Made by a program: the position numbers and the translations under genes. From an uncultured bacterium (GTDB lineage: Bacteria > Patescibacteriota > Doudnabacteria > UBA920), in assembly GCA_963749445.1 (NCBI GenBank), contig CAVVMJ010000003.1:128715-192714 (forward strand): a DNA stretch of 64,000 nucleotides, read 5' to 3'. The notes below the pieces were generated by a model that had not been told where the DNA came from, ran no database searches, and was given only the letters and a program-made list of their open reading frames with translations. Positions 4,863 through 31,384 of the stretch are shown here, piece by piece. Position 1 is the stretch's first letter. Each line of letters opens with the position of its first letter.

Positions 4863-7800
4863 TTACTGCGTGATCGTAAATATCTCCCCGCGGGTGCGGC
4901 CGAAGTGGTCAGGTTGGTAGAGCTCACTGGCGACGGCCGGGAGGTGCTGGAACTGGCCGGGGATTAGCGCGCGGACATAGTAATCGTATTCGTAAACTCC
5001 GGGCTGTAAGTTTTGGTTAAAGAGCATTAAGCGGTCATCGTGGTATTCCACGGAATCCGGAATGAGCGAATCGGTAGTGGTCAAATTGCCGGAATAAACT
5101 TCGTCGGGCAAATCCGCCACGGCCGTGGTGCCGGGGACGGTTGAGCTTTGGCGGACGAACAAGCCTTTAATCCACAGCCACGAGCGCGTAAAGAATCCCG
5201 GGCGCTTAAGCTGCACGGTTTTGGTTGGCACATTTTGTCCGGCCTGTGCATTTTCATATCCGTACGCCGGAGTGGTCAAATACTGCTGGTTTAACGTTTG
5301 GTTTTCCGTGGCCAAATTAAAGTTCACCAATTCCATACCCGCCGGAATAAAACTTTCCACAGTCACAAAATTCCGCGGCTTGCTTACGGTTAAGGTTAAA
5401 TGGGCCCTTAGCACCTGTCCGACTTTGGCCTGATTAAGCGGCGTTTTATTCACGGTATCATCCAAAGCATAAAGTTCGCGCGAAATCGCAAAACCTTCGT
5501 CGCGCGGCGCAATACTGTTAACCGGCAAAAAATACTTTAGCGTCATATCGTAATAAAATCCATTGGTCTTGTCGTTGAGGTTCTGTTTATTAAACTGCAA
5601 AACGCTAAGTTTGTTTGGAGTAAATGACGAAATTGGAATAAAACTTTGCAGGGAATCCAAAATCGTTTGGCTGTTAAATGTAAAATTAGCTTGCGGCTTG
5701 GTATCCAGCAACAAGTTTAAGGTAAAGCTAGACTCGGTCTCCCCTTTCCACTGCAAGTAGTCAACCAGCGCGTCCATAACCGTAACCGTGCCGTCGGTTG
5801 ACCCCCACGAGCCGTCCTTGGCGCGGGAATTTTGCAGCCAGCGCAACATTTTGTCGGTTTCGCTGAATTGGCGCTGGGCTAAACTTTCGGCTTTGAGCAA
5901 CAAAGCCGTATCCTTAACCGGTGTTTCGTAATAATACCACAGTAAATTCTGATCCCCGGTGGTCAAATACGCGCCGCGGCCGTCCACCACCACGCGGTTT
6001 TCCAAAGTCTGGAAAACCTGGTTGCCAAACGTGCTGGATTGTTTTGCCGATGACAACAAAGCCAAATACACCAAAGACAAATTGGAAATATCCTCGTTAA
6101 AGAATTTTGGATCGTTGGCCAAAGCTTGAATTTGCGGCTGCAAAGCAGCGAATTGCTGGGAAGCGGATGGTACGCGGCTAAAAGTATAAGCCGTTAAAAT
6201 CAAACTGTCTTTGCTGCGGTTAAGGTTATAATCACCTGTCCAAGTTTGATAAGCGTAAGCCACAGCGCGGGTTTCGGCCGCGTCGTCAATTTTGTATTTG
6301 GCCTGGCGCAAGTCTTCCAGCGCGTTTAAAACATCCAAAGTCAAATAGTAATCGGACTTCATACCCGGATAATAGCTGAATCCCCCGTCCGAATTTTGGT
6401 TGGACATAATCCGGCTAAGGCCAATACTGACTACGTCGTCGGCCGAGTAAGTTTGGTTGTCAAACTGAACTTGGGGCATTTTAAATTTATCACCCAAGTT
6501 TTTTAAACTGACAAAGCGCTTAACCGTAGCCACGGCCGTAAGCTTGCTGATCATTTGCTCGGTGCAGCCATATGGATAATCCACCAAATATTTCAACGCC
6601 CCGGGCAAAACGCCGGCCAATGTGGCCTGGGCCTCTATTTGCACGCCGCCGCGGTCCGGGATAACATTGTCCGGCAGCCAGACGTATTCGTTGGCCGTTT
6701 GGTTAGTAGTATAGTTGGATGTAGCCACGGCTTCGTAAGTCTGGTCCGGCGTAACCGGAAAACTGCTGTCCACGCTGTCCTGGTACTTGTCATTTTTGGC
6801 CGTAATGTTCAAAGTATGCTGACCGTCCTGCTGCGATGCCGGCGCCACGGCTTTAACGTAAACCGTTTTGGTGTCCCCGGCGTTTAACGTTACGGTCTGC
6901 GGCTTGTTGTCCGGCATTTGGAGCGAGCTGCTGGTAAAGCTGACCTGAAGTGTCTGGGCGCTGCCGGTTTGGTTAAAAATTTTGCCGCCCAAAGCAAAGC
7001 TGTCGCCGGGAATGACAAAGCGCGGCACTAAAGGCGTGACCATCAATTCTTTTTGCGCCTTAAATTCCTTATATCCAACGCCTAATTTGGTATCTTGGGT
7101 GAGTCCCACGCCTTCGGCCTGCCAAGTGGTAAGGTTATCGGGCAAAGTAAAACTGACTTGGGCATGGCCGTCGCTGCCGGTTTGGACATCCGCGTTCCAG
7201 TAAGCCGTATCTTTAAACACCCCGCGTTTTTTGCTGGCCAAATCCTCGGGCGCGGCCCCGCCCCCGCCTTTGGTGCCGGTCGGAATTTCCGCCTCGGTCA
7301 AAATATTTTTGATGTTTGACGAAGTGGTCACACCCAGCGGCCGGCCGTCGTAAAAAAAGCTCACCGGATCTTTTTTGGGATTGCCCGAAAGTGCCAGCAC
7401 GCTCAAATCCGCCACAGCCAAGGAAACATCCGCGGGCACGGGCTTACCGGAAACATCTTTGGTGACGACATCCAAAGTCACCTGCTCGCCGGGTAAATAA
7501 TTATTTTTGTTGGGTGTTACGTCCACGGTCAGAGTTTTTTGTTTGGTGTCTATAAAGAACTGGGCCTGGCCGAATTTAACTTCCGGCTTGGGCGACAGCA
7601 GCAGTACCGTGACAAAAACATTGGGCACGTAAGCGTCCTTGACGTCAAAAGTATAATTATAAAAATTTTGGTTGATGTCTACGATTTGGTAATCCAAAAT
7701 CCGGCCGCGCTCTACCGCAATCAGAGCCTTGGCATGGTCATAAGGCGACTTGATGACTACCTGCCCGGCTTGGCCGACTTCCAGTTTGTTATTGGCCACG

Positions 7801-10800
7801 GCCAAATCCAAAGATTCGTTGTTTTCCGGCTGGACTTCCACGCTGCCCTGGCCGTAAACGTAAAAATCCTGCGTGGCGGTAATGGGATTGCCGCGGCTAT
7901 CGGCTGCCGTAAGCGCGACCTCATACTCGCCTTCCTGCCCGACCGTAAAATCCTTGGAAAAATTGCCGCTGCTGTCGGTCTGGGCCGTAAACTGCTGCAC
8001 CGTGTCTACCTGTTTTTCGGAATGATAGTAATAATTCCCGTCAACCTCCTGGCGCTTAAAATAGTTCCAGGTAATTTTGTTGACTTTGCCGCTAATATTG
8101 CCCACGGAAAGTTCTTTGCCCTGGGTATCCACGGTTTTGATTAAAATTTTATTGGCGTCATTTTTGCCAAAATAGCTCTTGTCCAAATTCACGCCCAAAT
8201 AAAACTGCCCGCGGTGCACAATGAAAGACTGCTCGTTGGACACAGCCTGTCCCGTGGTATTGGTTACGGTTACATCAACCACAAAAATTTTACTTTGATT
8301 TTGATTGTCTATGGAAAACAGTTTACTAAAATCCAAAACTTGGCTTATTTGCGCGTGACCCTGGGTATTTAACTGCGCTTTGCCGCGCAAAATAAAACTG
8401 TCGCCGTAGCCGGCATCGGGCTGGTAATACCAGCCGGCGCCGAACTGGAAATTTTGGTCCTGGTAGCGGTCAAAATAATAATCCTGGGCCGTGACCGTGT
8501 AATCCACGCTGCCGCCTTCCACGGGCACGCCAAAATAATAATTGGCGTCAACGCTTAGGTTGGCCGTATCGCCGGCAATGTATTCGGCCTTGTCGCTCTT
8601 TAAATCAACCTTAAACGGAGATGGCACGTAATCTTCCACGTCAAAAGTATAAATGCCGTCAAAAGCCTGGACGCGATAAGTGCCCAAGGGAGCATCCGCG
8701 GCCAAATGGAACACCGTGTTAAACGTACCGTTTTTACTGATGGCTAAATCCTCCGTGTCCACCTGTTCATTCTTGCTGCTAAAAATCTGCAGGGACGCGG
8801 TCTTGCCCGTATAAATTTCGTAAACGCCGTCGTAGCCAATGCGGTAAAGGCCCTTAATGTCCACTTCCTGGCCCGGACGATAAATCGGTCGGTCAGAATA
8901 AATGTAAGTTTTGTCCCCTCCCTGGTAAGGCGACGACCACTGAAATTTGTCGCTGTAGCCGGACACGATGGTGCTGTCATTGTCCTTGCCGATTACGGCC
9001 GCGCCGTTGCCGGCGTAAGCTTTGGCCCGGGCCACGCCGGAGCTGTCGGTGGTTGCGGTGTCAAACGCCAAATATTTTTTGTCCTGTTTTTGGAAGACTT
9101 GGATGGTGGCGCCCTCTACAGCGTTAAGTGAGCCGATTTGGGTTACCCAATACAAATTGCCCTGGGAAGATGACAACAACTCGCGCTCCGTGGCGCGTTC
9201 GGGCTGGACGGCGGCGGTTCCGGGAGAAGACGAAGTGTCGTCGCTGACTTCCACTTTCTTTTCCTGGGCAGCCAAATTGGTCACGTTCAAAAAAGTGCGC
9301 TCATAAATTGGCGGGCCGGGGCGGGTTTTGCCGGTGTTATAGTCGTAAATCTGCTGGCGCAGCTGCGGGTTGGAAAAACTTAAAACATAATAACCCAAAG
9401 GGCTGGGAACAATATCTGACAACTGCACCTGGAAATAATTCAACGTCCAGAATTTTGGCGGCAGGTCAATGCGCTTGGTCCAGGTCTGCTGGCAGTCCAG
9501 CGCGGAGCCGGCAATACCCGCATCCGGCTGGGTGTCGGGATCCAAATACCCGAGCATGGTTTGGCTGCTTACCTGGCAAACGTGCAAATCCAAATAATCC
9601 AAATTCGTGGCCGCGTAAGTGAGCTTGGTATGGCCGGGCGAAGTAACGTTGTAGCCCTTTTGCAGGGAATTAAAATCGGTGTAAGTGCTGTCAATTTTGC
9701 CGGAAGTAAAATTTAAATTTTGGCTCAAGCTTTGCCCAAACTGGTCAACTAAATTTAACTGCATCTGGTACTCTGTTTGCGGAATTAACCCGTAACGGAT
9801 CCGGTTGTCATACTGACCGGGCGAGCATTTTTCGTCAGCTGATCGTGAGCCAGTCTGCACCTTATAGGCCACATCCCAGTCCCATTTGCCCACGCTTAAA
9901 TTGGACTTGAGCCGCTGGTAAAAATTTTCCGGCTGGGCATCGTCCAGCGGAGAATTGGTGCAAATGATTAATCTGGTAACGTCTGCCGCCTGCTCACCCG
10001 GGGCAGGCGTGGTGCTTAACACCTTTAGCTGGGGGAAAATTTGCAGCGATTCCTTAATCGGGTCGGAGTTTAACTGCAGCCCTTTGGCATTAAAAATTTT
10101 TGTCAGCTCCACGTCAAAACTTTGTCCGGGCTGCCAGTTTTGATCTTTAAAACTTACCAGTAATTGCTTTTTATCGGTTACCTGCTTACATTGCCCGTCA
10201 ACATAAACCTCATTGCCGTCCGCGTCCAATTCACACCTTTGTCCGTAATCCACACGGTCCAAATTTTGCGCCGTAATTTGGGAACGGTCTTTGTCTATCT
10301 CCTCATAAAAATTCAAAACCAGCTGGCCTTTGGGGTCAAACATAGTGGGCTCGACCAAACTGGAACGGGAAGACGAAGCGCTTACTGACTCCACAATGTC
10401 GGGAACCTGCACCGCGGCGCTGCGGCCCTCGGACAAATTAATATCACCCTCCAGGGGAACGGCGCCGCTGATGTCTACCTGGTAATTGCTATTATTGTCC
10501 CAAAATTTGGCGCGGCCGAACTTGTCGGCTTTGGCAAAAATCAAAACCACGGATTTGTCGGTATAATCCGTTAAATTAACCGCCCCGCCCAAGCTCACGC
10601 CGCGGGTGCCATACTGGGTGACAAAGGGCACCGCATTGTTGGTCGCTAAATTTTTTACGGTAATCTGCGCGGTGGTTTTGGCCAAATCTACGGGTTGGTT
10701 AAAATCAATCTTAACCGGTTCGTCATATAATGTTACGCCATCGTGATGGATGGTATTTCCGGCAAACCGCAAGGGCCGCGTGGTAAACTGCGCCTGCGCC

Positions 10801-11525
10801 TGGGGCACAGGCAAGCCGTCCATAGATGTAAAACCGCTCTGTACCAAGACGGTATAATGGCTGGAGCGGGAAAGGCGCGCTGTTGGCGTAAACTCCAGCG
10901 TCCGCGTAGTCGCCCACTTAAATTTTCCGGCTGTTTCCGGAATGATTTTAACGGGCAGGGGCTTGGACTCCTGAACATCCAGCGTGCTTAGCGGCACCAT
11001 GGGCCGGTTAAATTCAATGGTAATGGCATCGGTCTCCGGCGCTTCTGAACCGTCTTTGGGAAAAATCGCGCTAACCTCCGGGTCAACATCGGCCTGGAAA
11101 TTTTGCGCCAAATGCACATCGCCGGCGGCCAAACTGACTTGGTAGTATTTGCCCGACTCCAGTTTGGCTGCCGGCTTAAAGACCAATTCAGTCGCCTTGC
11201 TGCCCACAGACCAGGTTCCTAAAAGTTTTGGGTCAAAACTAATTGCATCCTTGGCCTGATCCGAAGTCAAGCTGACTCCGGGTGGTAAATTAATTACTAC
11301 TGCCGCGCTTTGGGAAATTTTGGCCGCCACCAAGCCCACCGGCTCATCCTGCCATTTGGGCTGAATACTTTTAACATAAAAATAATTATACCCCAGCCAT
11401 CCGGCCGCTGCCACAATTAACACAGCGGCCGTCAACATAACGCCGCGCCTGTGGTGTCGCTTTAGCTGCTGTTTGTCTATTTCTGTCTCCTGAACGGGTT
11501 TTGCCGGAGCATTGGTTTCGTCCAT
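4863..11525 (-). CDS. Bacterial alpha-2-macroglobulin family protein (2220 aa, N-terminal membrane anchor).
   Basis: Thioester motif YPYGCTEQ; N-terminal TM after a basic stretch; very long run of MG-like beta-rich sequence. Confidence 0.8.
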   Translation of the reverse strand: MDETNAPAKPVQETEIDKQQLKRHHRRGVMLTAAVLIVAAAGWLGYNYFYVKSIQPKWQDEPVGLVAAKISQSAAVVINLPPGVSLTSDQAKDAISFDPKLLGTWSVGSKATELVFKPAAKLESGKYYQVSLAAGDVHLAQNFQADVDPEVSAIFPKDGSEAPETDAITIEFNRPMVPLSTLDVQESKPLPVKIIPETAGKFKWATTRTLEFTPTARLSRSSHYTVLVQSGFTSMDGLPVPQAQAQFTTRPLRFAGNTIHHDGVTLYDEPVKIDFNQPVDLAKTTAQITVKNLATNNAVPFVTQYGTRGVSLGGAVNLTDYTDKSVVLIFAKADKFGRAKFWDNNSNYQVDISGAVPLEGDINLSEGRSAAVQVPDIVESVSASSSRSSLVEPTMFDPKGQLVLNFYEEIDKDRSQITAQNLDRVDYGQRCELDADGNEVYVDGQCKQVTDKKQLLVSFKDQNWQPGQSFDVELTKIFNAKGLQLNSDPIKESLQIFPQLKVLSTTPAPGEQAADVTRLIICTNSPLDDAQPENFYQRLKSNLSVGKWDWDVAYKVQTGSRSADEKCSPGQYDNRIRYGLIPQTEYQMQLNLVDQFGQSLSQNLNFTSGKIDSTYTDFNSLQKGYNVTSPGHTKLTYAATNLDYLDLHVCQVSSQTMLGYLDPDTQPDAGIAGSALDCQQTWTKRIDLPPKFWTLNYFQVQLSDIVPSPLGYYVLSFSNPQLRQQIYDYNTGKTRPGPPIYERTFLNVTNLAAQEKKVEVSDDTSSSPGTAAVQPERATERELLSSSQGNLYWVTQIGSLNAVEGATIQVFQKQDKKYLAFDTATTDSSGVARAKAYAGNGAAVIGKDNDSTIVSGYSDKFQWSSPYQGGDKTYIYSDRPIYRPGQEVDIKGLYRIGYDGVYEIYTGKTASLQIFSSKNEQVDTEDLAISKNGTFNTVFHLAADAPLGTYRVQAFDGIYTFDVEDYVPSPFKVDLKSDKAEYIAGDTANLSVDANYYFGVPVEGGSVDYTVTAQDYYFDRYQDQNFQFGAGWYYQPDAGYGDSFILRGKAQLNTQGHAQISQVLDFSKLFSIDNQNQSKIFVVDVTVTNTTGQAVSNEQSFIVHRGQFYLGVNLDKSYFGKNDANKILIKTVDTQGKELSVGNISGKVNKITWNYFKRQEVDGNYYYHSEKQVDTVQQFTAQTDSSGNFSKDFTVGQEGEYEVALTAADSRGNPITATQDFYVYGQGSVEVQPENNESLDLAVANNKLEVGQAGQVVIKSPYDHAKALIAVERGRILDYQIVDINQNFYNYTFDVKDAYVPNVFVTVLLLSPKPEVKFGQAQFFIDTKQKTLTVDVTPNKNNYLPGEQVTLDVVTKDVSGKPVPADVSLAVADLSVLALSGNPKKDPVSFFYDGRPLGVTTSSNIKNILTEAEIPTGTKGGGGAAPEDLASKKRGVFKDTAYWNADVQTGSDGHAQVSFTLPDNLTTWQAEGVGLTQDTKLGVGYKEFKAQKELMVTPLVPRFVIPGDSFALGGKIFNQTGSAQTLQVSFTSSSLQMPDNKPQTVTLNAGDTKTVYVKAVAPASQQDGQHTLNITAKNDKYQDSVDSSFPVTPDQTYEAVATSNYTTNQTANEYVWLPDNVIPDRGGVQIEAQATLAGVLPGALKYLVDYPYGCTEQMISKLTAVATVKRFVSLKNLGDKFKMPQVQFDNQTYSADDVVSIGLSRIMSNQNSDGGFSYYPGMKSDYYLTLDVLNALEDLRQAKYKIDDAAETRAVAYAYQTWTGDYNLNRSKDSLILTAYTFSRVPSASQQFAALQPQIQALANDPKFFNEDISNLSLVYLALLSSAKQSSTFGNQVFQTLENRVVVDGRGAYLTTGDQNLLWYYYETPVKDTALLLKAESLAQRQFSETDKMLRWLQNSRAKDGSWGSTDGTVTVMDALVDYLQWKGETESSFTLNLLLDTKPQANFTFNSQTILDSLQSFIPISSFTPNKLSVLQFNKQNLNDKTNGFYYDMTLKYFLPVNSIAPRDEGFAISRELYALDDTVNKTPLNQAKVGQVLRAHLTLTVSKPRNFVTVESFIPAGMELVNFNLATENQTLNQQYLTTPAYGYENAQAGQNVPTKTVQLKRPGFFTRSWLWIKGLFVRQSSTVPGTTAVADLPDEVYSGNLTTTDSLIPDSVEYHDDRLMLFNQNLQPGVYEYDYYVRALIPGQFQHLPAVASELYQPDHFGRTRGEIFTITQ

Positions 11526-11618
11526 GCCCGTATTTTAGCACAAAATAAATTTTCTGCCCAAGTCTACGCCTAAAATTACTCGCAAACTCTCTTTTGGCGA
11601 TTGTGGTAAAATGTAGGT

Positions 11619-13001
11619 ATGGAAATCTTGGACAAAAAAACAGGCTCAACTACCGGCTGGCTGTTGCTTACCCTAAGCGCATTAATTATTATCCGCATCC
11701 TGCCCATCCTTAAATCCCCGTTTTCCACTTACGGTTATGACTTTGGCTTTTACTCTTACGAGGCCGGTCACGCCGGACAGTTTCATTTTATTGACTTGTT
11801 CAACAACGCCGTTTGGGGCGGCTACAACAACCCGATTTTTTTGATTGGCTCGTGGCTTCACATTCCGTCCGCGCTTTTGGTCAGCGAGTTTTATTTTTTG
11901 GCGGCCGTGGCTTTGGGCCTGGCAATTTATTTTTGGATGAAATTAAAAAGCCAAGCGGCCGGAATTTTTGCCTGCCTGCTGGTTGCGGCTTCGTTTGTCC
12001 AAACCAGCGGATATTTGATGTATCTTTGGAAAAATATTGTGGCATTGCCGCTTTTGGTATTAGGTTTTAAATTTTTGGAGGAAAAAAAATATTGGCAACT
12101 GGCAGTTTGCACCGCGGTCATTTTGCTGCTTCACCGTACCACGGCCATTGTCTTTATTTCATCGCTGATAATTTACGGAATATGGCAGTTCATCCAACAA
12201 AAAAAATTTCGGCTTTTGGCCGGCCTGTTTGCCGCAGCGCTGATTTTAGCCGCAACCGGATTTTACGCCTTACATCTTAAATCTTTAATCTTTAATCTAA
12301 TTCACAACAACAACTACTACGTAACCACCGGCCTGTTTATGGAAGGGTCTAACTTTTGGTTAATCTGGTGGCCATTTTTGCTTCTGGCTTTACCGGGAGT
12401 GTACCTTTACCTCAAAAAACGCCAACACCCGATTTTGCCCGTATTTACGGCAATTTTGCTGATTTGGATAGCGTTTAAATTTCCCTTCTACCGGCGCATG
12501 CTGCTTTATTTGGATTTATGTTTGATAGTTTTCGCCGCGTACTTTTTAAGCCTGGTGGATTATTCGCGAAAATTTATGAAACTCGCGCTCGGCGTTATTG
12601 TCGCCGTGCTGCTAATCCGTTCCGCCGATTACGCGCTGTCCCAAACGCCGCTGATTACCTCCCAAGAAGTCAGCGAAATTAAAAACTTCCGCCCGCCCGG
12701 CGGCCCCGGTTTTATCCTCGCCGTTTCCGCCAACGACGCGCCGTGGCTTTTAGCTTACGCCAATCCGGCCCAGCGCTTAGGCGCGCCCGGCCTTCTGGAA
12801 GACCCTCACACCTATCAGGAATGGCAAAACTTTTGGCATGGCCAGGACCAACGGCAATTTTTGTCTTACTACCCGCGGCCGCTGTATTTTTACCAGCGCA
12901 GTTACCGCCTGCCGCCGTTTGGCGTTACCCAATGCCTCACTCCGCTGACGCCGAATTTTTCCCAGCTAAACTACGATTGCCTGGAAAAATCCCTGCCGTA
13001 A
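11619..13001 (+). CDS. Polytopic membrane protein, possibly a GT-C fold (PMT/ArnT-like) glycosyltransferase.
   Basis: About 11 predicted TM helices, a first extracytoplasmic loop with acidic/aromatic residues (YGYDFGFYSYE), and a soluble C-terminal domain. Confidence 0.35.
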   Translation: MEILDKKTGSTTGWLLLTLSALIIIRILPILKSPFSTYGYDFGFYSYEAGHAGQFHFIDLFNNAVWGGYNNPIFLIGSWLHIPSALLVSEFYFLAAVALGLAIYFWMKLKSQAAGIFACLLVAASFVQTSGYLMYLWKNIVALPLLVLGFKFLEEKKYWQLAVCTAVILLLHRTTAIVFISSLIIYGIWQFIQQKKFRLLAGLFAAALILAATGFYALHLKSLIFNLIHNNNYYVTTGLFMEGSNFWLIWWPFLLLALPGVYLYLKKRQHPILPVFTAILLIWIAFKFPFYRRMLLYLDLCLIVFAAYFLSLVDYSRKFMKLALGVIVAVLLIRSADYALSQTPLITSQEVSEIKNFRPPGGPGFILAVSANDAPWLLAYANPAQRLGAPGLLEDPHTYQEWQNFWHGQDQRQFLSYYPRPLYFYQRSYRLPPFGVTQCLTPLTPNFSQLNYDCLEKSLP

Positions 13002-13029
13002 AATTATCAGCCCGAACCTTGCACACAAC

Positions 13030-13057
13030 AAAACTCTCCGCCTTGGCGGAGAGTTTT
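13030..13057. terminator. Bidirectional terminator hairpin.
   Basis: aaaactctccgccttggcggagagtttt, lying between convergent genes. Confidence 0.55.
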
Positions 13058-13111
13058 GTTCCTGTTATTATTTTTTGGCTAATCTTAAAATAATAATTTT
13101 TTCAATAAATA

Positions 13112-16100
13112 CTAATTGTGAATCGACACAGTGTTAGTCGGGTAATTGACAATCAAGCTGCCGGAAAGGCCGCTGCCGGCGCCGTTTACATCGTTAAAAG
13201 TCAAAACACCGGCCGAGCCAGGGCTTAAGGACAGGCTCGCGGAATTTGCAGTTATCGCGGTAACCGGAATATAGATATCGTAAGTTTTGGAAGCTCCGGC
13301 CGCAATCGTATTGCCGCCATTAAAAGTCAAATTTAATGTTCCGCCGCTAGAATTGCCAAATACGCTGGAATTGGAAACAACTTGGCCGGTTGCGCTATCT
13401 ACGGCTGTTACCGCGTTGGTGGTACTGATTGTTGCGCCCGATACGGTAACGCTGATTGGCAAAGCGGTCAAAACAATGTTGCCGGAAGCGTTGGCATTGA
13501 CCACTACGGATGCGACTTTTACCGATCCTGTTGTTAGAGAACTGTTGGAAGCAACCAAACTTAAAGTTGGGTAAGAACCCACTACTTTCATAGTGTTGCT
13601 ATTAACATTGGCGGTTGCGGTTTGGGTAATGCCTCCAGATGAATATTTGATGGAACTTAAAGTAATATAGGACGTGTTCCCGGAAGGTATGCCGTTAGCT
13701 CCGACAGAAGCATAATTTACGGAAACAGGTATGTTTGCGCCCGCGTAGCCGGCCGGAATGGGAAGGTTTAATCCCGTAATCACGGCCGTGCCGCCCACCA
13801 CCGGAGCCGTCAAGTTGCTGACTAAAACTGAGGTAATGCCACTGCCGGAAACAGTGAACGTCAGTTGCTGGACGGTCACGGCAGAAGAAGCGGCGAGATT
13901 ATAGACCGCGATTGGCGCGCTCATTGAGCCGCCGACAATGAACTGCGAAACTGGCGACATCGCGCTGAGCGTGGCGCTCAATGACGTCGAAACTGCTCCC
14001 TGCACTGTTACCAACTGGCCTCCCAGGGGAATTATTGCCGGATAGGTTTGATTATTGACTGAGGATTGCGCGGTTATAGAACTTAAAGTAATAAAACTCT
14101 GATATTGGCCGGTAATGTTAGTGGGGCTAAATGTCACATCAACATAGATATTAAGATATATCGTCGCTTGGGGCGCTATTACCAAAGGATTCGTCGACAG
14201 ACTGAATGTGTAGGTATTGCCGTTGCTGGGACTCGGCACAGCAGAACTCAACTGAGTCGTGCCCGACATAAGCTTTAAATTCTGAAAATTACCCGTGACG
14301 TTACTATTGGAAGTTTGGAGGGTAATTTGTTTTACTAAAGCAGATTCATTATTACTGTTATTCTTTAAAGTAAACGCGGCAATCATCTGGTTTAAGTTAT
14401 TAGTGCTAACCTGGAGACTGTTAGAGCCGGTTGTGGCCGCAGTTAAACTTAAATTTGAAGTACTGCCGCACGTGCCGGCGATCTGGTCCAGCGGCGCGTT
14501 GCAGCCTTGCTGTTTCATCGACACCACGCCGACCTGGCTTAAGGCCTGCTCCGCGCTATTGGCCGCCACGACATTGGCAAAACTAAAACCCCAGGAATTA
14601 AAAATGGCAACGCTCGGAAAACCGTACAAGCCGTTTTGTCCAACCAACTGCACCGTGCCATTGTTGTTTATGATAGTGCCGGGACGAATAACCGCGGAAT
14701 CGCTGACTTTGACGTAGCTATTATTGCTCGACGTTCTTCCGGAAGAATCGGTAGCATAAACCATAATATTATAGATACCGGAACTCTGCCAAGTATGGCT
14801 GATGGTAAACGATAAACCTGTAGGCTTATCGTTGCCGGTTTGTTTTTGAGATCCATCTCCCCAATCTACGGTGTAAGAAATTGTATATCCTGCGGTAGTA
14901 CTCGGGTTGGCCACGGACATAACATAAAAACTGCTCACGCCCGACATTACGCTGGTCGGACCGGTAATAATCGGCGGGGTTAAAGCGGAAACGGTAGAAC
15001 CGCACGCGTTGTTAATTTGGCTTAAAGGATCGCTACAGCCGACCTGCTTCATCGGCACCGTGCCGATTTGGCTTAAGGCCTGCTCGGCGCTGTTGGCGGC
15101 CACTACCTGGCTAAAGCTCCAGCCCCAGGAATTAAAAGTCGCGATGTCCGGGATGCCGTACAAACCCTTGCTCCCCACCAAATAAACCGTGCCGCCGTTG
15201 GTAAACACCAGTTGGCCTATGCGGGCGCCGCTAATAGGTACAGCGGCAACTGAAAAATTCGCACTAGAACCAAAATTAACGGTAGCGCTGTTATCCCCAA
15301 CGCCAACAACACTTGCTGAATAATTTCCAGCCGCTCCGGAAGAAATATCCGCGCGGACGGCATAATAAACCGCCTGGCCATCCTTAATCAATTGCGGCGT
15401 AAATGAAAAGTCGTACTGAGTATTGTTATTTGAATTACCTGTAAAAACATTTTTTACCGCGGCAACAAAATTACCATTTTGATCGTAAAGCCCAACATTG
15501 GAAAATTGACCGGTAACGTCTCCCGGGCTAATGGCCACCGAATAATCTCCCAAGTTCAGACTTGTGCCGCTTAGTCCCACGCTGAACGTGAACAAATTAG
15601 CGCCGGTTGTGCCCGCAATTATTTTGCTAGCAGGTGAAACGGAAAAATTAACAGTTCCGATTTTAGTTGAGCCGCACATGCCGTTAATCTGGCTAATGGC
15701 ATCGCTGCAAGCCGGATTGCGGGAAGGCACCCAGGTGCCGGAAACCGGCAAGGCGGATTCGGCGGCATTGGTCGGCAGGACGTTGGCAAAAGACCAACCC
15801 CACGAATTAAATACCGCTACGCTCGGGATTGGATACAAAACACTCTGGCCAACTAAGTAAACGGTTTTATCAGTCTTATAAACCAACTGGCCAACGCGTG
15901 CGCTAACGGATGTTCCTAAAGTCACGGAAAAAATTTGGGCATTACTGGTACCATTAGCGTTAGTTACGACCACCGAATAGTCGCCAGGGATAACACTAAC
16001 TATGTACTGCGGGCAAGCCGTACCAACCGCGCAGTGCGGCGCTAAAGTTTCGGGAATGGTAAATTGCAAAGTTTTGCCGTCGCTGGAAGTTAAGTTGCTG

Positions 16101-18928
16101 GCCACTTGATAATTCCTCATGCTCACGTTGTTTCCGGTGGAAGCAAAACCGCTGCCGGAAACTGTCACCACAGTGCCCACCGGCCCGGATGCGGGATTTA
16201 ATGAGTTGATATTGACAACGCTGTTAGTCGGATTAACCAAACTAAAACTTTGACTGGTATCCGGGACGCCATAACAATGGGCCGGGTAACTATTAGTGCA
16301 CATTTGTGGCCCACTAATGGTCAGGGTATAGTTGCCAACTGACAGATTGTTGCTAATGGTCCAACTATAACTGCCGGTGTTGGGAGCGGTGGTGGTCAGA
16401 CTATAGTTGCCGGAAGCACCAGTTAAAACAATGCTTAATGGGTAACCACCGGTGGTACTCGCATCCCAGGTAATCATATGAATACTGCCAAGTGCCCACT
16501 GCTCGCCACCGGCCGGGGAAAAAATCTTGATTGAAGTGGAACTGGCGGCAGAAACTATGGTAAACGCACCGCTAGTGCCGCCTACTACATAAGTACAGAT
16601 GGTTCCACCATTATTAGCTGTACAATTATTTACCGGATATGAAACCGCCACCTTATAATAGTTTGACGCGCCCATTGTGCCGAATGTCGGACTTGCGATT
16701 GTCCAAGCATAAGATCCATTATTTGGAACATTGGATGCAATAACTTGATAATTAGTACATGCGCTTATCATGGCAGGGGTACAATCAGTACTGCTGACCA
16801 ACTCTATATTAACTGTGGGAGAAGCCGAGCTATTAGGTACCCAAGTAACTATATGGGTAGATCCAACCGCCCACTGTTCTCCACCGGCCGGGATAGTGAC
16901 GCTAACTGTCGATTGGGAAGAGCTGCACGTGCCGTTAATCTGACTAATGGCATCGCTACAGGACGGATTGCGGGAAGGCACCCAGGTGCCGGAAACCGGC
17001 AACGCGGCTTCTACGCTGTTGGCCGCGGATACTTGGCTGAATGTCCAGCCCCAGGAATTAAATACCGCTACGCTGGAAATCGGATACAAAACATTTGAGC
17101 CGACCAAGTAAACGGTTTTATCACTCTTAAAAACCAACTGGCCAGTACGAACACCAATGGTCGCTGACCCGTTTACAGTAATAGTAAAAGTATTGGTGCC
17201 AATGTTGCCGTTGGTGTCCACCGCTTTAAGTTGGAACGTATATGTGCCGGCCGTAGTCGGCGTGCCGGAAAGAGTGTAAGTGTTGTGATAATAAGCTGGG
17301 CAAGCGGCTCCCACCAGACAAGCCGGTATCGGATTTTGACTTAAAGACAAACCGGGAGGTAAATTACCGTCCGACGTCATTGTGTATTCCGCGTTGGATG
17401 GGGATATATTTAAAGTCGCCATATAATACTGCCCGACCGTAGCTGTAGACGACGGCCCAGCAATAGTAATCGTCTGGGTTGGAGAAATTGATTGAGTGAT
17501 AACAAACGGCGCATCGCTCTTGTCGTCCGAAATGCTGTGGTTATCCTGAATCCAAGCCTGATAATATCCCGACGGAATGGTATGGCCATAAGCATCATTG
17601 CCCTGAACCGTCCAGTTAAATGAACCGTTGTTGGGTTCATTAGATCCCAAGTTATACAAACCGTTGCCGCAGGAGCTGACGCTGGAATTGGCGCATGGAA
17701 TCAAATAAAGATGGATTAAATAGCTTGGATCGTCGCCGGTCCACTGGATATTTAAATTTGATCCCGTGACAAACTTCTCCCCGCCGTTCGGGCTTAAAAT
17801 TTTCAACAGGCCGGCCGCCGGAACCGGGTTAACGGTTATTGTGGCGGGAACCTGCCCTAAAACATTAAACGCATAACCGCCGCCAAAGGTGGCCACTATA
17901 TAATACGTGCCGGACGGCAAGTTACCGACTGTAGCGGTAAACATCCCGTTAAGCCCGTTTGGAGCGCTGCCCACAATCTGCGTAATGTAATTTGCAACAT
18001 CTTGCCGATAGGAAGGAACGGGGGTAGTTACGGCTGCCGGATACGAAACTCCGGTCGCGCTGTTTACTAATTTAATATTGATATTTAAATTGCCGCCATT
18101 ATTATAAGCCCAGCCGGAAACCATAACACTGCCCGGAGCCGTGGCGCTGTAAGAAGACATGGATTCCAGCCAGCCTTCTATTAAACTATTGCTGCCCTGG
18201 CCGTAATGCGGGGTGGTATAGCCGTAAGCCGGCGGAGGCGTTGGACAAACGATAATCTGGCAACCATTATTATCATATTTATCATAACAACCGTTCTGGG
18301 GAACTGCGGTCGGAACCGCACATGTCGGGCTTGGCTTGGCCGGAGCGGTAATATTTAAAGATGTCAGTTGCTGTAAGCGGCTGCCGATTTTTTTATATAA
18401 AATAAAAGTGTAGGTTTGGTTGGGCAACAAGTCATTGCCGGTATAGCCCGAGCCGGAACCGGTAATACCATCCATAAACGGCCAGCTGTTAACCTTTATG
18501 GCGCCGGTAATGCCGCCTTGCAGCTGATAATCAACCTTAACCTGCCAGCCGTTGCCGGAAAAACCGATAAGCTGATAAGTTAAACAGTTGACGGTATTGT
18601 AGCCGCACACGGGCTGGTTGTAGCCGTAAGTGGCCACGCCCAAAACCCGGGGGGTCTGGACGGTGGTATTAAACGCGCCGGCTAAAATGCCTTCTGCTCC
18701 GCCGGACAGTTCGGTTTGGGCAACCATGGTGAGCGCGCCGACTGAAGTGGCGGCAAACAGCACAAAAGCAATGGCCGTAATCGAGCTAATTTCCGCGTTA
18801 AAAATAGATCGCACAAAAGACCAGGTGCCGCTGGCTGTAGCGCTGGTTTGTTCCCGGGCTTGGCTTAAGTGCCTGCCGGAGATTGCGTATGGGTTCATGG
18901 AAAAACCTATTTCCGCGCAAACAGACAA
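13112..18928 (-). CDS. Giant Ser/Thr/Asn/Gly-rich cell-surface protein with tandem ~80-aa repeat modules and a PKD-like segment.
   Basis: N-terminal TM/signal; at least 4 copies of the module GQLVxKxDKTVYLVG...FNSWGWSFxxV...CSDxxSQINGxCGS; VDWGDGS (PKD-like); two modules are about 85-90% identical at DNA level (about 15670-15900 and 16925-17165). Confidence 0.7.
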   Translation of the reverse strand: MSVCAEIGFSMNPYAISGRHLSQAREQTSATASGTWSFVRSIFNAEISSITAIAFVLFAATSVGALTMVAQTELSGGAEGILAGAFNTTVQTPRVLGVATYGYNQPVCGYNTVNCLTYQLIGFSGNGWQVKVDYQLQGGITGAIKVNSWPFMDGITGSGSGYTGNDLLPNQTYTFILYKKIGSRLQQLTSLNITAPAKPSPTCAVPTAVPQNGCYDKYDNNGCQIIVCPTPPPAYGYTTPHYGQGSNSLIEGWLESMSSYSATAPGSVMVSGWAYNNGGNLNINIKLVNSATGVSYPAAVTTPVPSYRQDVANYITQIVGSAPNGLNGMFTATVGNLPSGTYYIVATFGGGYAFNVLGQVPATITVNPVPAAGLLKILSPNGGEKFVTGSNLNIQWTGDDPSYLIHLYLIPCANSSVSSCGNGLYNLGSNEPNNGSFNWTVQGNDAYGHTIPSGYYQAWIQDNHSISDDKSDAPFVITQSISPTQTITIAGPSSTATVGQYYMATLNISPSNAEYTMTSDGNLPPGLSLSQNPIPACLVGAACPAYYHNTYTLSGTPTTAGTYTFQLKAVDTNGNIGTNTFTITVNGSATIGVRTGQLVFKSDKTVYLVGSNVLYPISSVAVFNSWGWTFSQVSAANSVEAALPVSGTWVPSRNPSCSDAISQINGTCSSSQSTVSVTIPAGGEQWAVGSTHIVTWVPNSSASPTVNIELVSSTDCTPAMISACTNYQVIASNVPNNGSYAWTIASPTFGTMGASNYYKVAVSYPVNNCTANNGGTICTYVVGGTSGAFTIVSAASSTSIKIFSPAGGEQWALGSIHMITWDASTTGGYPLSIVLTGASGNYSLTTTAPNTGSYSWTISNNLSVGNYTLTISGPQMCTNSYPAHCYGVPDTSQSFSLVNPTNSVVNINSLNPASGPVGTVVTVSGSGFASTGNNVSMRNYQVASNLTSSDGKTLQFTIPETLAPHCAVGTACPQYIVSVIPGDYSVVVTNANGTSNAQIFSVTLGTSVSARVGQLVYKTDKTVYLVGQSVLYPIPSVAVFNSWGWSFANVLPTNAAESALPVSGTWVPSRNPACSDAISQINGMCGSTKIGTVNFSVSPASKIIAGTTGANLFTFSVGLSGTSLNLGDYSVAISPGDVTGQFSNVGLYDQNGNFVAAVKNVFTGNSNNNTQYDFSFTPQLIKDGQAVYYAVRADISSGAAGNYSASVVGVGDNSATVNFGSSANFSVAAVPISGARIGQLVFTNGGTVYLVGSKGLYGIPDIATFNSWGWSFSQVVAANSAEQALSQIGTVPMKQVGCSDPLSQINNACGSTVSALTPPIITGPTSVMSGVSSFYVMSVANPSTTAGYTISYTVDWGDGSQKQTGNDKPTGLSFTISHTWQSSGIYNIMVYATDSSGRTSSNNSYVKVSDSAVIRPGTIINNNGTVQLVGQNGLYGFPSVAIFNSWGFSFANVVAANSAEQALSQVGVVSMKQQGCNAPLDQIAGTCGSTSNLSLTAATTGSNSLQVSTNNLNQMIAAFTLKNNSNNESALVKQITLQTSNSNVTGNFQNLKLMSGTTQLSSAVPSPSNGNTYTFSLSTNPLVIAPQATIYLNIYVDVTFSPTNITGQYQSFITLSSITAQSSVNNQTYPAIIPLGGQLVTVQGAVSTSLSATLSAMSPVSQFIVGGSMSAPIAVYNLAASSAVTVQQLTFTVSGSGITSVLVSNLTAPVVGGTAVITGLNLPIPAGYAGANIPVSVNYASVGANGIPSGNTSYITLSSIKYSSGGITQTATANVNSNTMKVVGSYPTLSLVASNSSLTTGSVKVASVVVNANASGNIVLTALPISVTVSGATISTTNAVTAVDSATGQVVSNSSVFGNSSGGTLNLTFNGGNTIAAGASKTYDIYIPVTAITANSASLSLSPGSAGVLTFNDVNGAGSGLSGSLIVNYPTNTVSIHN

Positions 18929-19083
18929 GCCCTGATTTTGGAGCTTAGCGTTCGCGCTGTTTAATTTTATTTTTGTTTCGATCTTCGGCTGTTTTGGCCA
19001 AAGAAAAAGTTTTTAACTTCTGAATATATTATAGCACATTTAAAAAAATTTGTCCAGCGTATGCGGAAAAAATTATTACCTAT

Positions 19084-19331: not shown

Positions 19332-20471
19332 CTATTGCTGCTGAACGGCGTTCGTCACCGGCGGGTACAGAGCCGCATCCGCCATATTAGGCGCGAACTC
19401 GCGCGGCAAAAACGTATATGCCGCGTTGGGTTGGGTAAAATCGAATGCCCACAGTTCGTTGCCACCTTCGTGATACGCGTCCCCTTGGGCATAAATCGAA
19501 ATATATGCCACGCCCTTGGAGACGAAGAAGGTATGTGGACCAAACTGCACGCCATTCAACATCCCACCTGTAAGCAACGGCACAGCGTTGACAAACGGCC
19601 CTTGCGGCCCAAGTGCCTGCTGTAGCTGGATGATCTGACCGGGAAAGGATGGTCCTGTGGAAACCGAGGGTAAACAGGGATCCGAGCAGGTCTGATTGTT
19701 GCCGCCCTGCACCACCGCGAGCAACACATAGACCTGATTCTTTTGGTCGTTTGTTGCTAACCCCACGGCGTTGCTAGTGGGCACGTGATAGTAAATCTGA
19801 GCCTGGCGACTGTTGGACTTGAGCAAAACCACATCCTGATTCACGATGTCGAGCGTGTACAGGTCGCCATTATTCAGATATATACCACTTGCGATGCCGT
19901 AACCGACAGAGCGCAAACCAGAACCACTTTGGGCATTAACCTGGTTCGTGTCCACAAACTGCTGGAGTACAAACGGGTTATTGATGCGCCCGAGGGTGAC
20001 AGAGTTGGAAGCCTGGGCTATCAAGGCATCAGCGAGACCAACCGTGGGATACTGATCGATGCTGCTGGCAAATCCCTGGCCGTTATCCTGAATGCGACTC
20101 AGGCCTTTGGAACTGAGGGCGAAAATCGTGCCCCCCAAGGCAATGCCGCACTTTTGGAAGTCCTGGCCCGGCAAATCGGTTACTATAGTCATGGAGTCAA
20201 CGCGCGTTTTCTGGCGCGCACCCCACACTGCCCGTAGCACGCCATCGTAACCGCACACTAAAACCACATCGCGGTCCGTGGGCAAGGTGAATGACTGAAC
20301 CAGCGGGGTGGCGACTTCGGCCTGTCTGCGAGCAGCATGCATTTTGTGCTCCGCCGGGTGCGAAGTCCAGACTCCGGCGTTGCGATTCCAGACTTCCATA
20401 CGGTCCTGGGCGAGAGCGCCAACGCATAGCAGCGCCAACGCAAGAACTACTGTCAAAGATCTTTTCGTCAT
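19332..20471 (-). CDS. Secreted hypothetical protein (signal peptide, beta-rich), part of a GC-rich island.
   Basis: MTKRSLTVVLALALLCVGALAQD signal peptide. GGAG SD upstream. Local GC about 55%. Confidence 0.5.
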   Translation of the reverse strand: MTKRSLTVVLALALLCVGALAQDRMEVWNRNAGVWTSHPAEHKMHAARRQAEVATPLVQSFTLPTDRDVVLVCGYDGVLRAVWGARQKTRVDSMTIVTDLPGQDFQKCGIALGGTIFALSSKGLSRIQDNGQGFASSIDQYPTVGLADALIAQASNSVTLGRINNPFVLQQFVDTNQVNAQSGSGLRSVGYGIASGIYLNNGDLYTLDIVNQDVVLLKSNSRQAQIYYHVPTSNAVGLATNDQKNQVYVLLAVVQGGNNQTCSDPCLPSVSTGPSFPGQIIQLQQALGPQGPFVNAVPLLTGGMLNGVQFGPHTFFVSKGVAYISIYAQGDAYHEGGNELWAFDFTQPNAAYTFLPREFAPNMADAALYPPVTNAVQQQ

Positions 20472-20813
20472 TGTTGAAACACTCCGTTTTGTCAAATTTG
20501 GTTGTCTCCCACCACTGGGTCTGGGGCAACTAGCTATATTGCCCCCGAAAAAATAAATGTCTACGGCTGGATCCAGGATATTTTTTGCGGCCCTCAATAA
20601 TCATCGGCACAAAAAATTCCGGGATGGACAGCATTAAGACATCCACTTTTCCGGGGACAAACTTCTTTTCTTCTCTTCTAAAATCCTCCTAAAACTTATA
20701 AAAGTACTAAAAATCGCATAACCCACAATTTGGGACTATGACGTATAATTATACACCAAATTGCTTATTTTGTCAAGAATATTATGCTCTTGAATTAGCC
20801 TAAATTAAATAAA

Positions 20814-20871
20814 ACCCGCTTATTCAGCGAGTCTTAATCTTTAAATCTTTCAATTTTCAATCTTTCAATCC
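20814..20871. repeat. Family-H direct repeat (copy H2).
   Basis: cgcttattcagcgagtcttaatctttaaatctttcaattttcaatctttcaat, matching 22604-22729. Confidence 0.6.
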
Positions 20872-20997
20872 CCGATAGACATAAGGAAAGCAGGCGACAC
20901 TGGAGTGAACGCCTGCCTATGCCTCCAAATATTGATGTTACCGGTCGGAGTCCGGCCAGCCTCCCGCTCGCGCAAAAGCAGGGGCTGTAGGGAAAAC

Positions 20998-22510
20998 CTA
21001 AGACTTCTTGCGGAATAGCCAGTGAACGGTAATACTACCGTTCTTCGTCCATGAAAACCGCAAATGTTTGGACCCGCGGCTCACCTCGCACCCCTCTGGA
21101 CTGAACGACGGCGCTTGATAGTACTTATGCGTATGGAGTGACGGGCGGTCCCATCCCTCTTCCGCCAAAATCCGCACATGGAGTATGACTAAGCGCCGTT
21201 CCTCGGAACCCAAATCATCAAGCGCCTCAAAAAAATGAGGGCTGTACTCGACAGAGCCGTCATCGTTCTGCCATCTATAACTGTCCGGCAGGGTAAGAGG
21301 CTCATCAGCTCCAAGGGAGGCAATATTATCACCATGTTGCCCGACGAAATCATCAAGGTTAGCGCTATTCGTTTCTTCCTCGTCGGTCAGCTGTGCCAGT
21401 TGTAAAGCCTTGTGCATCAGCCGCAGCGCTGTCTTGAAGTCCCCTGATTTTTTCGCGGCTTCTGCCGAAGCGCGCAAGGTTACTGCTTCCGGATCTAAAG
21501 CAAATCCTTGTTCGCGTGCCGCAAGCTGAAGCCTTAAATATTCCTGCTCACGCCAAACCAAACGTTCTTCCGCGCTTGGCTTTGCATAAGCACCGGTTAC
21601 AGGACAAACCTTTGACTCGACTGTAACACGAGCTACACGACACTTGACTCGAAGCCGATAAAGCCTGCGCTTGGAGTCCAACAATTTCTGCGTGGCTTCC
21701 TCGGCCAGCGCGGGGAGCGAGCCCAACGCGAAGCGAAGGAAAGAAAGGCATAAGCGCGTCTGTTTCCGCCGATCGTTCCAATTCCCCTGCGAATGCTTGG
21801 AACAGAACGAACCGGAAGAACCTAAAGTACAGTTGACGAAGAACGACAAAAACAGCTATTAGAAAACCCATACTTATCATCGCAACCATACTTGAATATC
21901 TAACAGCACTTTCGTCGCGGGAATGATTGGATTCTAATGCGGCACGTTTAGCCTGAAAAGCCTGCTCCGAAGCTGTGTGCATAGTCTCGATTAAGGCTTG
22001 AATTTGAGACTGTGACACATCCAGACCCTTAAGCTGCCACTGTCCCGGAGGCATTCCGCCAAAACTCAATTTAAGTTCATCCAATGCCCTCTGGTTACCA
22101 TCATAGGTTCCGTCCGTGTTCGCCGGAAAATCCAACATCGCCATAATTGAACGAGGGCGGGATCCGGTTCCACACATACCTTCAAACACCTGTGTGGAAG
22201 ATGTACGCCCAACGATGGTATCGGTTTCCTGACACAAAAAAACCTTAACGGTCTTCCGGTCAGGTTCAAGCGCCAACGTTCCGTAAAGCTTTGGAAACGC
22301 CGGTAGGCTCAAATTCTCCAACACCGCCAATCGAATAACCGGCTTGGGGCGGGGAACAGGCCGGGTGGCGAGCAACTGGCTCATCCAGCTATTGTAGCTG
22401 GACAGAGACTTGCTCGCCCCGGCCAACCACACTGTCGAAACGACAAGCACTACCGCAAAAAAACATAGCAGCAGCGCGCAAGCATTGCGCCATCTTCTTA
22501 TCTTTTCCAT
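20998..22510 (-). CDS. Two-TM membrane protein (periplasmic domain + cytoplasmic coiled-coil domain) that appears as two overlapping ORFs. Probably a single gene with a frameshift near 21850.
   Basis: The TM helices ALLLCFFAVVLVVSTVWLAG and MVAMISMGFLIAVFVVL are followed by junk-like sequence that overlaps the next ORF in another frame. A GGAGGA SD sits 5 nt before the start. GC about 55%. Confidence 0.45.
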
Positions 22511-30710: not shown

Positions 30711-31384
30711 GCTGTTCCAAAGTCCTGGTCATTGACGCCAAGCACGTGCCGGTCAAGGGAGAAGATTACTGCGAATATCTGGCCTACGACACCAACGTCG
30801 GCTTAATCGGCCGGTGTCATCGGAAGGGCGGAGAATCCACCTGGGGTTACCGGCAAATTTTTAAGGAACTCAAGGCTGTCGGTTATGAACCCAAAGTAGT
30901 CGTAAGCGACGGCGGAACGGGCATTTTCAGCGCTTTGAGGGCATTTGGCATTAAACGCCACCAGCGCTGCCATATCCATCTGCTGCGGGATTTGAAGACC
31001 GGCCTGAGAATACACGCCAAGAGGCCGAAAATTGTTTTAAGAAAATTTTACTGGGTTAAGTACGCCAAGTTGGTTTTGGACTCCAACGATGAATACCAGT
31101 TAACTTTAAGATTAAAACATTTTGACAGGGTTGTATTTGCTATGTGGCCCGGAGGCGGAGACGTGGAATTAAATGCCATTAACGGTTTCATCAGGACTTT
31201 GCCTTTGGCCTTTACTTTTATGGAATACCGAAAGCTTTGGGGCATCCCAAAAACCACCAATGTCTTGGAGGGCTACATTAGCCATCTTAACGCCAGACTT
31301 AAGACCATGCGGGGACTCAAAAACCCGGCAAACGCCGGGCGGATATTGAATGCCATCCATTACTTTTTGAGGAAGAAAATTTAA
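30690..31384 (+). CDS. insB: IS1 InsB-like transposase catalytic ORF (expressed as InsAB' by -1 frameshift).
   Basis: DDE-type region VVVSDGGTGIFS...HQRCHIHLLRDL. Confidence 0.55.

Follow-up and report, generated by a model that had tools for sequence, protein, structure and literature searches.

A modular surface protein and its convergent neighbor

The 64-kb window analyzed here (the whole stretch of 64,000 nucleotides, from contig CAVVMJ010000003.1 of an uncultured bacterium of the Doudnabacteria, Patescibacteriota) encodes a giant Ser/Thr-rich surface protein and, convergent with it, a membrane protein with a GT-C-type fold. Four copies of one module lie within the surface protein. Judged by sequence, this module is a Cys-tailed subfamily of a large repeat family that is absent from both Pfam and NCBIfam. 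The features of the two genes are listed below, with residues of the surface protein numbered from the TTG start.

19028..19036, minus strand: extended −10-like element, TGcTATAAT, ~130 nucleotides upstream of the ATG at 18898; read by eye from the sequence
13112..18928, minus strand: giant surface protein gene, 1,938 amino acids counted from a TTG start
17810..18898, minus strand: conserved N-terminal region, residues 11 to 373, without a Pfam match
18713..18787, minus strand: N-terminal hydrophobic segment ISSITAIAFVLFAATSVGALTMVAQ, residues ~48 to 72, after a basic N-terminus; read from the translation
17549..17806, minus strand: Kre9/KNH-like immunoglobulin (Ig) domain copy 1, residues 375 to 460 (Pfam)
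17171..17458, minus strand: He_PIG Ig domain, residues 491 to 586 (Pfam, 33.8 bits against a 24-bit cut-off)
16919..17149, minus strand: module copy 1, residues 594 to 670, NSWGW, C657/C668
16649..16906, minus strand: Kre9/KNH-like Ig domain copy 2, residues 675 to 760 (Pfam)
16313..16549, minus strand: Kre9/KNH-like Ig domain copy 3, residues 794 to 872, best stretch 804 to 872 (Pfam)
15668..15898, minus strand: module copy 2, residues 1011 to 1087, NSWGW, C1074/C1085
14996..15223, minus strand: module copy 3, residues 1236 to 1311, NSWGW, C1298/C1309
14708..14911, minus strand: PKD-like domain with VDWGDGS, residues 1340 to 1407, scoring slightly under the Pfam cut-offs
14465..14689, minus strand: module copy 4, residues 1414 to 1488, NSWGF, C1476/C1487
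13115..14461, minus strand: C-terminal ~450 residues, with no Cys, nearly uncharged, and without a domain assignment
13027..13060, between the two convergent genes: perfect hairpin with a 15-bp stem
11619..13001, plus strand: GT-C-fold membrane protein of 460 amino acids, 11 transmembrane (TM) helices, EpsG-like by sequence

The initial annotation, made from the sequence alone, described the surface-protein gene as a Ser/Thr-rich open reading frame (ORF) of 1,938 codons, and this description holds. Ser, Thr, and Asn make up 13.4%, 10.4%, and 8.6% of the residues, respectively (Ser plus Thr, 24%), and charged residues are very few. The ATG at 18898 is a likelier start than the TTG, because the resulting product of 1,928 residues matches database entry P0001, which is 100% identical and begins 10 codons after the TTG. 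The TGcTATAAT element suggests that the gene has its own promoter. We predict that the hydrophobic segment serves as a signal anchor or TM helix. Of the 27 Cys residues in the protein, 26 fall into 13 pairs, spaced 5 to 11 residues apart and spread over the entire chain. This short-range pairing fits an extracellular, disulfide-stabilized protein.

The modules alternate with Ig-like units, and each module is preceded by an Ig-like domain. Kre9_KNH is matched above the Pfam gathering threshold (34.2 versus 24.6 bits) in three stretches. The PKD-like VDWGDGS segment noted earlier is present as well; its scores fall just short of the Pfam cut-offs (PKD_4, 24.6 bits against 27; PKD, 22.1 against 23.5), and the ortholog P0002 has recorded PKD matches. 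Only the N-terminal ~360 residues are consistently kept among homologs (43 to 85% identity), the remainder being shuffled. The C-terminal ~450 residues are common to P0003, P0004, L012, and L019 and are missing from P0002, the closest ortholog (77% identical). We also considered a role as a type IV pilin or at the pilus tip, since PilB is encoded nearby, and rejected it; the N-terminus lacks the G/FTLxE prepilin motif.

Four module copies from an old duplication

Using a hidden Markov model (HMM) built from the copies, we find exactly four modules of ~77 residues. They score 125 to 147 bits each, far beyond chance, and there is no further match in the protein or in the window. At least four copies of ~80 residues had been reported before, each with two conserved Cys, and both observations are borne out, with C-x10-C spacing in all four. 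A WGW motif had been ascribed to every copy. This is true of copies 1 to 3, which read NSWGW, but not of copy 4, which reads NSWGF.

Copies 1 and 2 had been described as 85 to 90% identical in DNA and as the product of a recent intragenic duplication. The identity was slightly overestimated: we measure 82% over 220 nucleotides (with the coordinates used in that description) and 81% over the 231-nucleotide core, with 77% identity in protein, and only sub-windows reach 88 to 92%. The inferred recency fails on comparison with P0002, which comes from another Doudnabacteria genome and carries the same four copies, identically ordered. Between the two proteins, orthologous copies are 85, 82, 78, and 70% identical, versus 70 to 74% for the paralogous pair of copies 1 and 2. 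Because orthologous copies are closer to each other than paralogous ones, the duplication is not recent and predates speciation.

The module belongs to a large repeat family

Profile and sequence searches with the module found nothing in Pfam-A (2025) or NCBIfam 20.0, nor among PDB sequences. Members of the broader family (P0065, P0072, and P0076) likewise have no Pfam match, and the broad family has no NCBIfam model. With respect to these databases, the module can thus be called previously unrecognized, as it was in the initial annotation, but it is not private to this protein. Exhaustive HMMER searches with a 16-copy profile (A2) recovered 1,105 cluster representatives at E ≤ 1e-3, of which 656 reached E ≤ 1e-10 and 47 reached E ≤ 1e-30. 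HMMER was used in place of a word-indexed homolog search, which returned zero matches to the four-copy profile and missed even the source protein, a false negative; negatives of such searches with short profile queries are unreliable.

The family falls into two classes. Among 151 proteins analyzed, 61 contain mostly or only full-length copies of ~77 residues, including the Cys tail. The other 90 match chiefly the first ~55 to 62 profile positions and form a core-only class (for example, GTIYFIS.G.K.PFPS..VF.SYGY.F..V..AN.AD..LP.G). The module therefore comprises a core of ~55 residues and a subfamily-specific tail of ~20 residues that holds the C-x10-C pair. The signature of the core is GT(V/I)YL(V/I)..G....(I/F)P(S/D)...FNSWG(W/F/Y).F..V..AN..E, within which N-S-W-G-(W/F/Y) and N..E are near-invariant from 25% to 85% identity and across >1,000 clusters. 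The Cys-x10-Cys-tailed subfamily is centered on Doudnabacteria, with some records labeled Daviesbacteria or “Saccharibacteria.”

The arrangement of copies in the core-only class is distinctive. Copies are always multiple, strictly tandem in 64 of the 90 proteins, and the arrays are terminal in 84, lying at the N-terminus in 35 and at the extreme C-terminus in 49. We scanned 78 family members for partner domains and found mainly Ig-like ones (TIG, PKD, Kre9_KNH, He_PIG, Big_7, and fn3). A minority carry Amidase_2 with SpoIID, Trypsin_2, G8/beta-helix, CBM60, PA14, or dockerin/cohesin domains.

Repeats of this kind also occur in phages. PHROG 9616, whose function is not annotated, matches a broad-family member at E = 9e-19 and the window module weakly (E = 0.013). 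Jumbo phages of Streptomyces encode proteins of ~100 residues (e.g., LukeCage gp67) with a version of the same repeat core, from a gene between those for a minor tail protein and a holin-noted protein. A tblastn search with the window module gave no phage match. We also looked to phage endolysins carrying the repeat as direct evidence of wall binding; hypothetical proteins of Streptomyces phages alone turned up, and this line was dropped.

Predicted fold of the module

An AlphaFold2 (AF2) model of the module, built from the 16-copy alignment (pLDDT 88), has four strands and two helices (E8-10, E16-19, E24-27, H30-35, E43-45, and H48-51). The predicted core is thus beta-beta-beta-alpha-beta-alpha, and after it a short helix lies between the two Cys. 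When this model was compared with the PDB by Foldseek, the top nine matches were all EccB1 or EccB5 chains, at weak scores (E 0.5 to 1.8, probability 0.15 to 0.47, TMq 0.41 to 0.46). The broad-family profile also matched EccB1 among PDB sequences, again weakly (E 0.84 to 1). Fold matches to small actinophage proteins in BFVD reached E = 4e-3 with probability 1.0. Other PDB sequence matches of 4-, 16-, and 55-sequence profiles (designed propellers through a GT.Y motif, coronavirus spike, and DNA polymerase alpha) were discarded as chance.

EccB1 contains four repeats of ~51 to 57 residues, each with a 4-stranded sheet and two helices (PMC4769845). They are weakly similar to the wall-binding phage protein PlyCB, and a role in binding peptidoglycan has been suggested, not shown; EccB repeats have also been proposed to be structural, with no demonstrated ligand (PMC4769845). 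The module shares with the EccB repeats of ESX/type VII secretion (PDB 4KK7, 3X3M, and 7NPS) a unit of ~55 residues with four strands and two helices. In both cases, the repeats lie in the extracytoplasmic part of a single-pass membrane protein of a monoderm or mycolate envelope. However, the structural match to EccB, which together with the PlyCB N-terminal domain is the closest known fold, is not significant at the scores given above, and no Pfam EccB match was found. The window module further differs in its added C-x10-C tail and in its context, an Ig-domain surface protein rather than a secretion machine.

A functional analogy can be drawn with the terminal wall-anchoring repeat arrays of Gram-positive surface proteins, which include triple SLH domains, CWB2, LysM, and SH3b. 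The broad family likewise places two to four tandem copies of ~55 to 60 residues at a protein terminus, on unrelated secreted proteins that include a peptidoglycan amidase/SpoIID protein and a protease. There is no sequence relationship to these domains (no Pfam match), and the copies in the window protein, unlike such arrays, are dispersed and not terminal. Terminal tandem arrays, the near-invariant aromatic and polar patch, and the EccB/PlyCB-like fold lead us to propose that the module is a glycan- or wall-binding targeting unit, a proposal that we hold at slightly less than even odds.

The neighbor is a GT-C-fold membrane protein with EpsG-like sequence

The convergent neighbor had been described as an ~11-TM protein resembling PMT/ArnT-type GT-C transferases. 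The ORF and its topology are as described: the AF2 model of the 460-residue product (pLDDT 91, pTM 0.88) has 11 TM helices, a first external loop that contains two short helices, and an extracytoplasmic alpha/beta domain of ~115 residues at the C-terminus, in which two Cys are invariant. All of the top 21 Foldseek matches in the PDB are GT-C proteins (yeast and human STT3, PglB, AglB, ALG12, ALG9, and ArnT), from E = 2.4e-7 (TMq 0.61) to E = 3.9e-2, with TMq up to 0.62 and probability 1.0; only noise follows rank 21. The modeled structure thus supports membership of the GT-C superfamily at the level of the fold. In 39 homologs, residue D41 of the motif YGYDxGFY never varies; it follows TM1 (residues 11 to 32) by 9 residues and precedes the two loop helices, a position that we take to be the usual site of the GT-C catalytic acid. 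H172-R173-T174-T175 is nearly invariant in the same homologs.

The PMT/ArnT part of the description did not stand. No PMT, PMT_2, ArnT, or STT3 Pfam match was found in the neighbor at E ≤ 1 or in the 39 homologs at E ≤ 0.1. By Foldseek, ArnT ranks only 20th and 21st (E 0.03 to 0.04), and PMT lies outside the top 50. By sequence, the best match is instead Pfam EpsG (PF14897; 28.3 bits, E = 1.2e-6, against a gathering threshold of 30.1 bits), with a weak DUF2079 match in addition. At E ≤ 0.1, EpsG is matched by 26 of the 39 homologs (best, 1.2e-10), Wzy_C weakly by nine, and DUF2079 by three; one homolog carries the NCBI name “EpsG family protein [Candidatus Doudnabacteria].” The weak Wzy_C matches raised the option of a WaaL/Wzy_C-type ligase, which we rejected, the fold search having returned STT3, ALG, and ArnT-type GT-C structures alone.

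In its predicted fold, the neighbor shares with STT3/PglB/AglB, ALG9/ALG12, and ArnT the 11 TM helices, the two loop helices that come after an invariant Asp, and an external domain of small size at the C-terminus, but it is only 10 to 16% identical to them, has no STT3, PMT, or ArnT Pfam match, and has a C-terminal domain of only ~115 residues. The EpsG family is named after Bacillus subtilis EpsG, of the eps exopolysaccharide operon. In contrast, the gene in the window is not part of a polysaccharide operon and lies alone beside the surface-protein gene, and its product has the extra conserved C-terminal domain with the two invariant Cys. No WWDxG motif is present in its sequence, and our scan of window ORFs turned up no gene for a polyprenyl-phosphate glycosyltransferase.

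The two genes are paired across Doudnabacteria

We searched relatives for co-occurrence of the two genes and found the pair in all of the 10 distinct Doudnabacteria loci examined. At each, a GT-C homolog adjoins a surface protein that shares the N-terminal region (33 to 85% identity). The genes are directly adjacent and convergent in nine loci (the window, L001, L003/L004, L005, L006, L007, L008, L009, and L016). At the tenth, L002, the GT-C gene is split (138 plus 324 residues; 7262-8670) and one gene lies between it and the surface-protein gene. Identity among the GT-C proteins falls to about 41 to 45% across loci, and the partner proteins range from 695 to 1,938 residues. The pair usually lies between PilB and PolA. 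L005 and the window differ in that an alpha-2-macroglobulin gene takes the place of the PolA flank, and the pair is retained in both. The hairpin between the two genes in the window is likely, from its sequence, to be a bidirectional terminator.

Several loci show further variation. In L009, the surface-protein gene is itself split into a 330-residue gene with the N-terminal region (12622-13614) and a 695-residue gene with the modules (10529-12616). The split genes in L009 and L002 may reflect frameshifts or pseudogenization in metagenome-assembled genomes. Between the surface-protein gene and PilB, the window has three ORFs without a Pfam match (19332-22510, minus strand; 421, 283, and 320 residues). 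The same slot in relatives holds variable genes, including one for a second module-bearing protein (L001, 6080-9805; 1,241 residues with three modules).

Interpretation

The explanation that we favor, with a probability of roughly one-half, is that the gene encodes a membrane-anchored, disulfide-stabilized extracellular protein with glycan- or wall-binding modules and that its GT-C neighbor possibly modifies either this protein or a wall polymer. The protein would resemble beads on a string: the N-terminal region of ~360 residues would be followed by Ig-like domains (three Kre9/KNH, one He_PIG, and one PKD-like) alternating with the four modules. These modules would anchor the protein within the peptidoglycan wall or on its surface, or would bind the surface sugars of a partner cell, with the conserved aromatic NSWGW patch as the putative binding site. 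The GT-C protein would use a polyprenyl-phosphate-linked sugar at the outer face of the membrane and would modify the surface protein, most plausibly in its N-terminal region or its S/T-rich linkers, or an associated wall polymer.

Several observations weigh against this explanation. As to binding, every source-named member of the family is a “hypothetical protein,” and no annotated homolog has shown binding. The similarity to EccB has little statistical weight (Foldseek E ~0.5; profile-sequence E 0.84), and peptidoglycan binding by EccB is itself a suggestion only (PMC4769845). The window modules are scattered singly among Ig domains in a protein that already has a predicted TM anchor. The logic of a wall anchor therefore carries over imperfectly, and the modules could fasten the stalk inside the wall or attach to a partner cell. 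As to the link between the two genes, all paired loci belong to a single lineage with a retained syntenic block (VanW-TsaE-DHH-PilB ... PolA), so adjacency may reflect inheritance and not function. The genes are convergent with a hairpin between them and are therefore not co-transcribed. Nine other module-bearing loci have no GT-C gene within 6 kb, and at two GT-C loci (L007 and L008) the partner protein has no module. Finally, N-x-S/T sequons are not enriched in the surface protein (38 observed versus 37.6 ± 5.0 expected from composition; z = 0.07), and it has no D/E-x-N-x-S/T sequon. Direct glycosylation of the surface protein by the GT-C neighbor is, taken by itself, doubtful. Our literature searches on CPR (candidate phyla radiation) surface glycosylation and on EpsG/GT-C classification found nothing directly relevant.

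Many of the same observations would also fit an adhesin that binds the host or partner cell of an episymbiotic CPR bacterium through host glycans, with an unrelated GT-C enzyme that works on the cell's own wall polymer and is adjacent by synteny. EpsG/Wzy-like enzymes are thought to make or decorate the wall polymer of their own cell, and EpsG and Wzy_C are the best sequence families of the neighbor. The varied architecture on a conserved N-terminal base looks like the outcome of diversifying selection, and the gene lies beside that for PilB, the type IV pilus ATPase. The syntenic block, the convergent genes with a likely terminator between them, and the many module-bearing loci without a GT-C gene all agree with this alternative. 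Yet replacement of the PolA flank, seen in L005 and in the window, has left the pair together. Repeats of the broad family also occur on autolysin-type enzymes (Amidase_2 with SpoIID) and on a protease, and these point to the cell's own wall, not to a host. We regard a host adhesin with an unrelated neighbor as rather unlikely. The modules could also be rigid connectors or spacers between Ig-like domains that have no ligand and are conserved for folding alone, given that every module comes after an Ig-like domain and that the EccB repeats, their closest fold, have been proposed as structural without a demonstrated ligand. This is very improbable in our estimation: N-S-W-G-(W/F/Y) and N..E are solvent-type positions that stay near-invariant at 25 to 85% identity in >1,000 clusters, and terminal tandem arrays on unrelated catalytic and noncatalytic proteins look like targeting modules.

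The initial annotation had suggested a glycosylated S-layer or adhesin system. The S-layer half of this suggestion is somewhat disfavored, and we consider it quite improbable that the protein is a lattice-forming S-layer glycoprotein that its GT-C neighbor glycosylates as AglB and PglB do. The GT-C fold is closest to oligosaccharyltransferases, the protein is rich in S, T, and N, with its 38 N-x-S/T sites, and the gene pair is conserved. Against this, the sequon count equals the compositional expectation, and the GT-C protein has neither an STT3 Pfam match nor WWDxG. The surface protein has 27 Cys in 13 pairs, where S-layer lattice proteins are typically Cys-poor, together with a predicted N-terminal TM anchor; no SLH or other known S-layer anchoring domain was found in it by Pfam. 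Its relatives vary in length (695 to 1,938 residues) and in domains, and the C-terminal 450 residues are missing even in a 77%-identical ortholog. The predicted features thus fit a membrane-anchored adhesin or wall-associated fibril better than a lattice-forming S-layer protein.

A bolder reading can also be offered. The core repeat might be a general wall-targeting module of Patescibacteria, a counterpart of SLH or LysM, anciently related to EccB and to actinophage proteins of the tail and lysis region. In that case, the glycan read by the Cys-tailed modules might be built or attached by the GT-C enzyme, and the two would form a self-contained “write and read” surface-glycan system that anchors a hypervariable adhesin. 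We put this forward as speculation and think it improbable.

Other features of the window

Next to the GT-C gene, a 2,220-residue bacterial alpha-2-macroglobulin (4863-11525, minus strand; MG2, bMG6, A2M_BRD, A2M, TED, and bMG10 domains) is encoded near a penicillin-binding protein (2423-4150, plus strand). The latter looks N-terminally truncated, because its transglycosylase match starts at profile position 81 at residue 6. Such pairing of alpha-2-macroglobulin with a penicillin-binding protein is known in other bacteria. Elsewhere, a Wzy_C membrane protein of the O-antigen ligase/polymerase family (40582-41847, minus strand; 73 bits) adjoins a class A penicillin-binding protein with a Big_7 Ig domain (41945-44800, minus strand) and is a second candidate for envelope-glycan synthesis in the window.

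DnaA, DnaN, and YidC are present (33144-35758, minus strand; 37053-37766, plus strand) and the cumulative GC skew has its minimum near 28 to 32 kb; the window probably spans the region of the replication origin. A fragment of a Mutator-family transposase (profile positions 204 to 367 of 379) lies at 30746-31384 on the plus strand. GyrA appears to be divided between two ORFs on the minus strand, 52855-53625 and 54193-55338, which carry the N-terminal topoisomerase domain and the C-terminal beta-propeller and are separated by a gap of ~570 nucleotides. An intervening element, a frameshift, or an error in the assembly could explain this split. Two further ORFs (59059-60132 and 60947-61612, both minus strand) match the pyridoxal phosphate-binding domain of Orn/Arg/diaminopimelate decarboxylases and may represent either one split gene or two genes in tandem. 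The sole tRNA in the 64 kb is a tRNA-Ile with a TAT anticodon (52433-52507, plus strand), an uncommon bacterial way of reading AUA.

Implications

An Ig-repeat surface protein with binding modules beside a GT-C enzyme is a familiar arrangement. Multidomain adhesin-like proteins next to glycosyltransferases are common, so current concepts are unchanged. What we present as new is a large repeat family without a Pfam or NCBIfam model, together with its Cys-clamped Doudnabacteria subfamily, and the pairing, throughout the lineage, of a single surface-protein family with a GT-C enzyme of EpsG-like sequence.

The CPR, or Patescibacteria, account for a large part of the diversity of bacteria, and nearly all of the biology of their envelope and attachment lacks annotation. 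Since the repeat occurs in >1,100 protein clusters, defining it as a domain family would improve the annotation of thousands of proteins. If the repeat does bind peptidoglycan or wall glycans, it would provide a handle on how CPR cells display their surface proteins. The pairing of the GT-C gene with the surface-protein gene, in turn, is a concrete candidate for protein or wall glycosylation in the CPR.

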